Of a DNA stretch of 64,000 nt, positions 59,189 through 64,000 are shown one piece after another. The DNA is from Botryllus schlosseri (lineage: Eukaryota), in contig CM119372.1 of the NCBI GenBank assembly GCA_051294905.1, positions 4,528,001 to 4,592,000 on the forward strand, read 5' to 3'. The position numbers and the translations under genes were made by a program. Within the stretch, counting starts at the first letter, position 1, and every line of letters begins with the position of its first letter. The notes under the pieces were generated by a model. That model worked only from the letters and a program-made list of their open reading frames with translations. It was not told the origin of the DNA and made no database searches.

Positions 59189-59751
59189 CAGGGTTGTAAT
59201 GAGTCGAGTCATGAGTCGACTTGAGTCGCGATTTTCTTTGATTCGACTTGACTCTAGTCATTTTCTCAAAATACAGAAATGACTTGACTCGAGTCAATCT
59301 ATGTAATGATAATGACTCGACTTGGACTCGAGTCATTGCGCATGACTCGAGACTCCGCCAAGACAGACATTTCACTACAATTTCGAAGAATAGTAAAGTA
59401 ACCACACATTGCTATTTCATCTATTCGTAGCGTCACTTGAAAATGCTACCAGAAACTGTTAAAAGTGAGAAAAATTAGTATATTATAAATGCGAACTTTT
59501 CGATATCACCAAACATTTACAAAAACTGGGTTAAACAATACTTTGACTGGAAACTGAGCAGTCAACGCAATGACTTTGACTCGGACTCGAGTCATAATAC
59601 CATGACTCGGACTCGACCCTCTGCTCGCAAACTTGGACTCGGGCTTGACTCGGTGGTGAATTGAAATTGACTCGACTTGACTCGAGTCAAATCTAAAAAA
59701 GTGAGATTGACTTGTGACTCGGAGCCTTGTGACTTGGTTACAAGAACCCTG
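59189..59751. mobile_element. hAT-type MITE with GACTCGAGTC repeats
   Basis: TIR cagggtt/aaccctg; 8-bp TSD GCTTCGAT. It ends ~60 bp before the GT7 exon. Confidence 0.9.
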
Positions 59752-59813
59752 GCTTCGATCACGACATCAGTGCTGCTGAACAATATGAATAAAGTATTCT
59801 CGTTATTTTTCAG

Positions 59814-60387
59814 ATGAGTTATAAATTATGCTCTATATTTAAAAAGATATGGACAACCACGATACTTAGATCCAACATACGCAAGTGTTTGCTATTGGCT
59901 ACACTTGCTCTATTGGTATTGAAGCTGTTCGAGGAGCCGACGAACACTCTGGCGAGGCGGAATAACGCAAAATTTTGCTTCCAAGACTTTGATCTCGACG
60001 AGATGGACGCTCGAACAGCGGAGCCTGATTTTAAAACGCCCCCGCCCAAGTTAGTGATACGCGACAACAAAAGTTCAACAAAGCACACTAAGGAATGCGT
60101 GCCGACGTATGACACTGTGAAAATACCGCCAGATACCCGCAACTCAGCCGGTACGAACTTAATCAGCGGCACTTACAGCCCGCCTGGATGTAAACCGCGT
60201 TATAGCGTGGCCGTAATCGTTCCGCTGCGGGGTCGGGAGGCAAACCTCCGAAAGTTACTCGCACATATGCACCCAATCTGGCAGAGGCAAGGTATCGAGT
60301 ATACCGTTTTTGTGACGACACAAATCTTCGGTGGACAGTTTAACAAAGCAAAGATCATGAACGCTGGGTTTAAGGAAGCGTCGAAGT
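59814..60387 (+). CDS. GT7/beta-1,4-galactosyltransferase-family N-terminal coding exon, copy A
   Basis: Type II signal-anchor LLLATLALLVLKLF, a stem, then GTYSPPGCKPRYSVAVIVPLRGREANL..HMHPIWQRQ..Y.VFV..Q...FNKAKIMNAGFKEA. Acceptor ttttcag lies directly before the ATG; the donor is T|gtgagt. Confidence 0.9.
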
Positions 60388-60824
60388 GTGAGTAGATTTT
60401 TAAGTTGTGTTCGACGCGTTTGCTGTGCGACATTTTCCATGGCGATACACGATGTTTCGATAACATCGTGCTGGTTGCATAACGTGATTACGGTTAACGG
60501 TCCTGGGTATAGTTCACCTTATCCAAATTCGATTATTATTATAATTTTCATTCACTTTAATTTTCATATCGTAGGCCCCGTTTTAGCTATATTGTCCTAA
60601 CAACAACTTCGAAATTTTATTAAAATCCAAATTAAACTGAAATACTACAAAAATCAAGTTCATTTCATCTCAAATCAAAGGTTATTCTGACGAGCACGAG
60701 AAGGGCAAACGCAGACAGTTGTATGCTATAATTTTAATTTCAATCGCATTTCTGGTTTACCTGAAAATGCTATGGCAAAACTGTGCAGTGCAAAACGAGC
60801 CAAGTTCGGTGTACCTGTACAATA

Positions 60825-61462
60825 GGGCTGTTCAAAAAGATAGCTTTTTCTTCATATTTCTCTGGCTGTGTGATAAAATTGTTAGGTTGGTTAAAACAAT
60901 CGCTGCGCACGATCTCTGGCTCAATTCCAACATGTAGAAGCGAGATTCTTGCAGTAGAAAATTTTGACTTTATTATTAAAAAATGAAAATAAAAAATTTC
61001 CAAATTTTTCTGTCAACCCCGTAAAATTGTTAGGCTGTCAGTAGAGATGATGCGCGCCAAATTTTGCTCAATTCCAACCACTAGAAGCGAAGTTATTGCG
61101 GTGGAAAAATTTGGATTTGAAGAAAATAGTATTCACGGGGACTAACTATTTAATTATTTATTATAAAATCATGGAATTAGAAATTTTTCTACTGCAATAA
61201 CTTCGCTTCTAGTGGTTGGAATTGAACCAAATTTGGTATGCATCATCTCTACTGACAGCCTAACAATTTTATGGGGTAGACAGAAAAATTTTGAAATTTT
61301 ATTTTTTATTTTTAATGATAAATTCAAAACTTTCTACTGCAATAATCCCGCTTCTACTGGTTGGAATTGCGCCAAATTGGCGTGCAGCGTTGTTTCACCA
61401 ACCTAACAATTTTATCACATAGCCAGTGAAATATGAAGAAAAATTTATTTTTTGAACAGCCC
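60825..61462. mobile_element. Fold-back MITE
   Basis: gggctgttcaaaaa...tttttgaacagccc with TA flanks; same family as 57588. Confidence 0.85.
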
Positions 61463-63171
61463 TACGTCGTACGTATTGTACACAGTTCTGCCATAGCATA
61501 TTCGGGTAAACCTCAAATTCGATTGAAATTAAAATTGGAGCATAGAAACAATTCGCATATTAGATTCGCAACAGATTACCGGCATTTCTTTCTCATTGGT
61601 CTTCGATATCACAACAAAAAGTATCTGGAATCATCGTCTAGTTGTCAAGTCTGTTCAAGTCACCGCGCGATGTCGCCCGCGTCCAGTTTAAAATTCTATC
61701 AAAGCCAAAATTTCCGCACGCTGAGAACACCGACTGCTACCCCACCGGGAGCGGCTTACGACGTACAAGGGTCAAATAACTTTTGCCAGCTGCTTTGTCG
61801 TTGTATTCGGCGACCTGCGTACATGTCTTTCCAACGTAATTACCTTGGTTATTATAAAGAAAAGTTCGTTCTCGTAAGCACTAGAAAGGCAAAAGTCTGT
61901 ACACCAAGCTTGGCTCGTTTCGCAGTACACAGTTCCCTGTAGCATTTTGAGAGAAACCGCAAATCAGATTAGAATTGAAATTAGACTATAGAAACATTAC
62001 CAGCAATTAGGCATGATCTAGCTCTCCAAGTCTACAGTGTACTACGGTTGTAGCACTAATGGAGTGGCGGCACGACTCTGTAGACGCGTTTCCTCGCTGT
62101 GGAAACTGCATCGACCCTTCCATATATCGGAACTTACTCAATGAGCATATGCCGTGATAGGAATCATAATGGTTTTCCCAACAGGAAACATCCCCAGGGT
62201 TATGAAACATGATATTTCGACAACAGCTGCGATATTGGGTACACGAGCGCTTGGGATATGCTTCTGATTTGTGCAGCGATTTACGCATAAAGACTGCGTC
62301 CTAAACAGCTATGACACTATGATTATACATAGCGTGTCGAGTAGTAAGTGTCGCGGAATCAATTGAGCATATTTCCGGGCGCTGGGTATTCGAAGGTACG
62401 GCCAGTCTTCAAGCCTTCGAATAGGCGTGCTGGTGACTACGTCGAGACGGCGCTCTTCAGCAATACCTTGTGTTTTCGTTGATCTTTTAAAAACAGCGCA
62501 TCCGTTCAGGTCTACGTAGTTATGCCGTATTGAGACTGTGCAGTGTGCACAGTCGGAAGCGAACTGCGAGACGTGATGCTCAGCCGGCTTCGATCGGATT
62601 TCGATGCTTTGTGAATATGTTAATTTGGAATGGATTTGTTACGCTGGGAACAAATAGCGACCGTTGGCATCACCAATCGCCGGCCATTGTGCCTTGGTGT
62701 AGTGGAGTGAATGAGTAACAATAGGTATCTCAAGATTTGAAGAGCTTTCGTTGAAGGCAGAGTGTTCGGTACACAATACATCGGCGAGCAAGATGGATTC
62801 TTGTGTAGTCTGCAAGGCTCGGCTCGTGATATCGAGGTTCAAGGCGTGATTGAAATGCGCCGACCGGGTATAGATGTTAGCATGTTGAATTTAACGTCGA
62901 CCTCGTAAAAGCGTCAGCACTTAGTGTGAAATATGTCGGCGTCAAGGTAGATTTGTAAGACATGCAGAAAGTTCTCTCTTAGATAAGTCGAGCGGTAGTT
63001 GAATTAGACTTTGAATTATTGCTTCACAGGTATTTTTTTCGAAATTAGACTAGAATTAGAGTTATAGCTGCTCAGTTTTGTAAAAATTAGATTAGAATTA
63101 GAATTACTGAAACGAAAATTTGGACATCAAACATTTCATGACACGTCTACCTCAATTATTTCGATTCAGGC

Positions 63172-63712
63172 ATGCTTAGAAGAAAAGTGCGCATCGCTCT
63201 AAAGCGTCTAGCTTGCGTTGCGTTAGTTTGTAAGTTTCTGCTGTCGTCCGGAATATTTGACGAGGTCTTGTCTTACCTGAACAATATACACAGCGCGCAA
63301 GATTTCATACTGGATAGCCCTACCGAGGGACGCGATGGAATTGCGCACGGCGCCTCTAGAAAGCGACTGCTCGAGTCGCTAAACCCCGAGACTTGCGCCG
63401 ATGTGCCCAAGCGACTGGTCGGGAAAGTGTCTCACGCTAAAGACCCGCCTGATATGAGAATAACCGAGCTTGTTAATAATGAAGTGACGGACGGTTCTTA
63501 CGAGCCCGGAGACTGTAAATCGCGCTGTCGCGTGGCTATTATAGTGCCTATACGCGGGCGTGAAAAAAACCTCCGTCATATGCTGGCTCATATGCACCCG
63601 ATTTGGCAGCGGCAAGAGCTGAGCTACACTGTGTTCACGATCACCCAAGCGGGAACGCGTACTTTCAATAAAGCAAAGCTGATGAACGCCGGTTTCAAAG
63701 AAGCTAGATCGT
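63172..63712 (+). CDS. GT7/beta-1,4-galactosyltransferase-family N-terminal coding exon, copy B (gene continues beyond the window)
   Basis: Basic N-terminus and hydrophobic anchor, then CADVPKRLVG..GSYEPGDCKSRCRVAIIVPIRGREKNL..HMHPIWQRQELSY..FNKAKLMNAGFKEA. Acceptor ttcag lies 2 nt before the ATG; the probable donor is T|gtacga. Confidence 0.9.
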
Positions 63713-64000
63713 GTACGAAACTACGTTATTCTGTATTGGTACAGTCATCGACGACAGATCGCTATACCGGTGTCTATTACGTCACACAGCGCGTGATTGT
63801 GTCATGCTGTGGACGACCGAAAGTTCTCAGCTGTTCCAAATTGTATCATTTAGATTTATAGCTACACAGTATTGTCCAAAATATTCTTAATAATCCAAAT
63901 ATCGAATTCGCAAAACTTGGGAATTCAATTAAATTCCTAGTCGAAAATAAATACAACAAACAGAGCTCATTCCCAAAAGCAGATTCAACAACTGAAAAAT

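Follow-up and report, generated by a model that had tools for sequence, protein, structure and literature searches.

The window analysed here is the whole 64,000-nt stretch of Botryllus schlosseri contig CM119372.1 from position 4,528,001 to 4,592,000, and close to its end two homologous exons, designated A and B, lie in tandem on the + strand. Each encodes a cytoplasmic tail, a putative transmembrane (TM) segment, a stem and the N-terminal half of a GT7 glycosyltransferase. Exon A (59814..60387) starts with its ATG at 59814, stays open for 191 codons and ends at the phase-1 donor T/GTGAGT (60387/8); exon B (63170..63712, 543 nt) has its ATG at 63172, 180 open codons and a weak phase-1 donor, T/GTACGA (63712/3). 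These frames, the profile matches and the gap of 2784 nt confirm the preliminary description of two open paralogous exons about 2.8 kb apart that end at the same codon in phase 1. Search against Pfam Glyco_transf_7N (PF13733, cut-off 27 bits) gave an E-value of 2.5e-24 (85.8 bits) for A and 5.4e-29 (101 bits) for B, and both matches end at an identical model position. Moreover, exon A could be aligned to chain positions 51-125 of the solved B4GALT1. The hydrophobic stretch after the basic tail is moderate in both exons, with best 19-residue Kyte-Doolittle means of 1.66 (A) and 1.71 (B).

An acceptor-like site abuts each start codon, as had been noticed earlier. The site of A, a pyrimidine tract followed by CAG at 59799..59813 (+ strand; 8/10 pyrimidines), lies 0 nt before the ATG, and that of B at 63155..63169 (+ strand; 7/10 pyrimidines) lies 2 nt before it. 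Such sites are rare: across 80 kb of the region, both strands and A and B themselves included, a pyrimidine-rich YAG equally close to the ATG precedes 34 of 2599 ATGs at a threshold of 7/10 pyrimidines or more, and 15 of 2599 at 8/10 or more. It was found in none of the 14 paralogous N-terminal exons printed from the same genome. Because each has an acceptor at its ATG, A and B are, as far as their sequence indicates, first coding exons at most. Candidate donors of a 5' UTR exon (e.g. 63030 and 58872) gave no signal, with 10 sites in ~4.1 kb compared to a background of 2.2 per kb. At the other end, the last base before the donor is T (T/GT) in both A and B, compared to G (G/GT) in 10/10 intron-bearing paralogues, which fits a single ancestral exon. 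The donor of B matches the consensus at 3/7 positions, the weakest of the set, compared to 5 for A and 5-7 for the paralogues.

Past the end of the window, on the same contig (C2) and strand, follows a single set of four C-terminal GT7 exons, termed E2 to E5, with canonical AG/GT ends. The intron between B and E2 is 1512 nt long and begins within the window (63713..64000). E2 (C2:4593225-4593389) encodes HDVD, the DxD motif; E3 (C2:4594262-4594402) encodes LFGGV and WGWGGEDDD, scores 75.8 bits against Glyco_transf_7C and could be aligned to the solved B4GALT1; E4 (C2:4597524-4597674) contains the His loop, and E5 (C2:4607246-4607399) runs to the stop. No further C-terminal exon was scored in the scanned upstream parts of the window or 25-80 kb downstream. 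In silico, A+E2-E5 and B+E2-E5 are both open and in frame, yielding products of 394 and 383 aa, respectively, which share a C-terminal half of 203 residues. The expectation of one common catalytic set downstream was thus borne out. Over the aligned part, the A product shares 44-54% identity with nine full-length homologues and the B product 41-49%. Searches of protein collections for a full-length product of either type returned only sequences the size of one exon, which run on into the intron. The locus combines tandem homologous N-terminal exons with one constant exon set in frame with each, and both copies possess an acceptor and a same-phase donor, as in mutually exclusive exons.

The gap between A and B was searched with a profile of 12 homologous C-terminal halves, which scores E2-E5 at 37-71 bits and detected no C-terminal domain in the gap, and with short-word blastn, which returned chance matches alone (best E 0.18). 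Both searches agree with the earlier statement that no DVD/FGGV/WGGED exon lies between A and B, and C-terminal exons of A's own, sought in 60388-63170, were not there. An E2 look-alike right after the donor of A was rejected as a chance match, as the C-half profile finds no domain in the gap and shuffled sequences reach 7.6 bits. In the A-B intron, a palindromic, high-copy MITE of ~650 nt (~60815-61467) is nested in an older inverted-repeat element of ~830 nt (60719..61547). This MITE-bearing palindromic element and two short repeats make up the recognised repeats, ~1075 of the 2784 nt (39%), a lower bound derived from 40 scored of 8182 candidates; the description of the gap as largely MITE was thus overstated, repeats of all kinds amounting to at least ~39%. 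The ~1.4 kb before B is mostly without repeat match. Another inverted-repeat, MITE-like element, rich in GACTCGAGTC palindromes, occupies 59190-59751 and ends ~60 nt before the ATG of A, and a seemingly related piece, seen in translation, lies ~17.7 kb into the downstream stretch. In addition, a dispersed repeat of ~42-nt ATTAGA-rich units is found in the window at 61517-61565, 61963-62011 and 63036-63134 and in the introns after B, with at least seven copies around the gene and in other parts of the genome.

A scan of the genome (495 Mb) with the 7N and 7C profiles, in which match counts are lower bounds, gave at least 57 7N matches and 34 7C matches at E < 1e-10, nine weaker 7C rows having been dropped. 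Pairing by hand resulted in at least 33 GT7 loci with both halves and left one 7C exon unpaired (L037:4903-5031; C5:5951403-5951531; C5:5951385), with no other GT7 exon detected in the surrounding 8 kb. Two N-terminal exons are present at 1/33 paired loci, the A/B locus only, unlike the other 32, which lack a second one. The paralogues in this genome have a phase-1 intron at the same place, after the FN(R/K)AK helix. The family has expanded to these 33 or more two-half loci, with clusters on C1, C4, C5, C7 and C10. Four loci (L007, L010, L013 and L014; C10:14865642 and C4:16742138-16769680) are intronless and probably retroposed in an otherwise intron-bearing subfamily, L014 being pseudogene-like with stops. 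L015 and L017 (C7:581233-587295) are tandem intronless GT7 genes with open frames of ~700 codons and a C-terminal extension of ~330 residues. The short N-terminal exon at L012:1480-1746 (C5:4135413) has no leading Met, which indicates an extra intron in the stem region.

Comparison of A with B over a 73-codon core showed 48/73 identical residues, with 22, 15 and 46 differences at first, second and third codon positions, respectively; pS is 0.755 (saturated) and pN 0.26. In the stem, 18/94 residues are identical. By this comparison, A and B are sister exons, and the tandem duplication that produced them is old. Intact orthologues in other assemblies number one for A (P0004) compared to three for B (P0005, P0163 and P0164), and all four lose similarity at the same codon, where they apparently read on into the intron. 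Core identity is 50/73 between A and P0004 and 59-70/73 between B and its orthologues, and A diverges faster, on a longer branch. P0163 is 92% identical to B, whereas no A-type exon as close to A was found in the assemblies searched. A-type exons do not match the first 22-33 positions of the Glyco_transf_7N model, positions 1-33 being lost in A, and A and P0004 share a Cys-containing stem motif that is absent from B. All A- and B-type rows, six in number with A among them, share 45 invariant columns, and the ATG-led tail and anchor are kept in 4/4 B-type rows.

Phylogenetic trees group the two types together. The full-exon tree recovered A+P0004 (99/96), the B group (94/97) and all six (98/95), and the core tree an A- and B-type clade (97/95). 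The mixture-model tree supported A+P0004 (91/97) and B+P0005 (100/96) and left the relation of the two pairs open; when a distant outgroup was added, the four-row A/B clade was not recovered, yet not rejected (p-AU 0.35). All Styela proteins in the trees fall outside the A+B clade. L006 and L018, in which the motif for cutting rows was unmatched, were omitted throughout, and L007 from trees made after the mixture-model tree; the core and full-exon trees also lack L015 and L017, and the full-exon tree L012 and P0019 (short or distant). Judging by the read-through residues, the base split by the intron seems to be C for both P0004 and P0005 and T for the remaining rows (A, B, P0163, P0164), always a pyrimidine (6/6), its identity in the four orthologues being deduced from protein only; this C/T pattern could reflect parallel CpG decay. 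Altogether, these comparisons indicate that the A/B feature is real, old and conserved. A metagenome scan returned one locus among 222 pattern matches, which was rejected as an A/B-like case because this GT7 gene is unrelated and its introns lie at different positions.

We consider it likely that A and B serve as alternative first coding exons for one common set of catalytic exons, an arrangement resembling that of GCNT2 and UGT2A. Accordingly arranged, the first coding exon of one ascidian B4GALT-like (GT7) gene would have been duplicated in tandem long ago, and each mRNA, we infer, would carry A or B spliced to E2-E5. The outcome would be two type II Golgi enzymes of 394 and 383 aa that have a common C-terminal half and differ in tail, anchor, stem and catalytic front. 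Transcripts starting upstream of A would enter at the acceptor of A, via a 5' UTR exon or a spliced leader, and skip B, which its length of 543 nt and weak donor may assist; those starting in the 1.4 kb ahead of B, most of which is free of recognised repeats, would enter at the acceptor of B. Since A is old and intact and lacks its own C-terminal exons, its simplest use would be in transcripts where it is joined to E2-E5. Points against this reading are the single orthologue of A compared to three of B, none of A-type being as close as P0163 is to B, the faster divergence of A with its loss of the match to Pfam positions 1-33, the in-frame join of A to B, the preference of paired acceptors for cis-splicing, the protein collections, which gave no full-length product of either type, and the tree with a distant outgroup.

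According to the accessible part of a study of Ciona, about half of the genes are trans-spliced (PMC1488885). Trans-splicing takes place there only at unpaired acceptors, paired ones favouring cis-splicing (PMC1488885, accessible part), a limit that speaks for transcripts with their own start ahead of B. The anchor exon might instead be chosen by spliced-leader trans-splicing, with A and B as alternative leader acceptors on one primary transcript: a leader added at B would discard A, and one added at A would go with skipping of B. The acceptors at both ATGs, seen in 0/14 paralogues, and the share of trans-spliced genes in Ciona speak for this variant, which we regard as unlikely. If true, such a switch would place a single catalytic core, which probably transfers GalNAc, in two different Golgi settings, and the Cys-containing stem of A would be a separate dimer or partner module.

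It is doubtful that A is a relic, once a working alternative exon or the 5' part of a duplicated gene and now silent or recently dead in this species, leaving B as the sole used form. The rarity of A-type exons (one compared to three B-type), the longer branch of A and the MITE-like element ending ~60 nt before its ATG would suit such a fate, but A preserves its frame, start, acceptor and consensus donor at a saturated synonymous distance from B, and the 45 invariant columns run across A- and B-type rows alike. The orthologue P0004 is intact and has the same end codon, so that A is unlikely to be a long-dead copy. In simulations of neutral evolution, the frame, start and donor of A survived in 415/5000 runs at 0.1 substitutions per site, 9/5000 at 0.3 and 0/5000 at 1.0, which excludes a long death of A and is compatible with a recent one. 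Together with pN and pS against B, this frame survival points to purifying selection on A, the subject of a dN/dS check proposed in the preliminary description.

The donor of A also joins the acceptor of B in an open frame of 575 aa, so the reading frame does not enforce exclusion. A protein including both exons, with two anchors and two N-terminal halves, would be aided by the strong donor of A and by the position of B's acceptor ahead of that of E2, but it is very unlikely. An in-frame join arises by chance one time in three, and, judged from type II topology, a second membrane span would put the catalytic domain in the cytosol. Moreover, all four B-type rows retain their ATG-led tail and anchor, and the four two-stretch matches read among the 150 representatives listed belong to other genes.

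Still less can be said for A acting alone as a truncated membrane protein without a catalytic centre, serving the full enzyme as decoy or partner, which we judge highly improbable. Reading through the donor meets a stop two codons into the intron in A and P0004 alike, and A-type stems carry a conserved Cys motif of their own; however, this stop follows from the donor consensus and recurs in the complete paralogue L016, A retains a strong donor and the catalytic-core invariants, and the sole AATAAA of the A-B gap sits within the MITE. On its own, half a GT-A domain would probably fail to fold. It is extremely improbable that A begins a gene separate from B, the C-terminal exons of which moved elsewhere or were lost in assembly: the strong GT7C exon at C5:5951385 has no N-exon match nearby, but it lies on another contig and is 67% identical to E3, compared to 67-73% for the three best other paralogues, and the gap sequence is contiguous with no C-terminal remnant.

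If A and B are alternative first coding exons, their choice would leave most known catalytic motifs unchanged. The DxD motif, the Tyr289 equivalent (Leu here), WGWGGEDDD and the His loop all reside in E2-E5, and at FNKAK and RGR the sequences of A and B coincide. They differ in tail, anchor, stem and the first 22-33 Pfam positions. The aligned Leu site is what we take to be Tyr289 of B4GALT1, and the roles of residues 188, 191, 228 and 347 are likewise our assumption. The accessible part of one report describes a Gal-T1 Y289L enzyme that serves for GalNAc transfer (PMC12720101). Leu at this position suggests transfer of GalNAc rather than Gal, and both forms may be GalNAc transferases; a literature search for R228K/Y289L found nothing. 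Since the donor-determining residues are common to both forms, the donor sugar is probably unchanged, and the switch would mainly alter Golgi position, partners or tissue of expression, which are likelier targets than donor choice. Of the two differences that the preliminary description proposed for the isoenzymes, distinct anchors are supported by the divergent tails, anchors and stems, whereas distinct donor-binding halves are weakly supported, the donor motifs lying in the shared exons.

Vertebrate GCNT2, a member of family GT14, and UGT clusters are already known to combine variable N-terminal exons with a shared catalytic set; UGT2A and UGT1 are unrelated to GT7 in fold and compartment. 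GCNT2 and UGT2A are closer precedents than the UGT1A/protocadherin-like logic first invoked. As described in the accessible part of PMC1885805, GCNT2 (IGnT) has two constant exons and, in tetrapods, two or three variable exons (two in opossum, chicken and frog), each of which encodes a TM segment, has a promoter to itself and is spliced separately. The A/B locus similarly belongs to a probable Golgi glycosyltransferase whose tandem, putatively variable exons, encoding a predicted TM segment and the enzyme front, precede common constant exons and originated by tandem duplication. It differs from GCNT2, as far as that text describes it, in being a GT7 gene of an invertebrate chordate with four constant exons, and in having an acceptor at the ATG of each variable exon, compared to a promoter before each; moreover, splicing is reported for GCNT2, whereas the A/B locus is known here from genomic layout. 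In human UGT2A, according to the same accessible text, the number of variable N-terminal exons is likewise exactly two, and they share five constant ones (PMC1885805). The variable regions of UGT1 are modelled there as the acceptor pocket (PMC1885805), unlike the present case, in which the constant exons encode most of the known catalytic motifs. The accessible parts of PMC7948508 and PMC3691228 provide general background only.

The closest named homologues are B4GALT-like proteins of Styela clava, which, like the paralogues in this genome, are members of the same subfamily, with catalytic domains that are 44-54% identical. One X1/X2 pair from Styela was compared (P0002 and P0006), and its members differ at the C-terminus, not at the N-terminus as in A/B. 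No ascidian or GT7 case of variable first exons was found in the literature searched, which mostly excluded subscription journals. The weight of the finding is bounded by its being a single two-exon case with no shown phenotype, and exon A is likely missed by gene predictors. If true, the A/B locus would extend variable N-terminal exons, as an independent case, to a further glycosyltransferase family and to an invertebrate chordate. It would offer a natural pair, the same catalytic C-terminal half on two anchors and stems kept across lineages, with which to learn how anchor and stem set Golgi position and substrate access.
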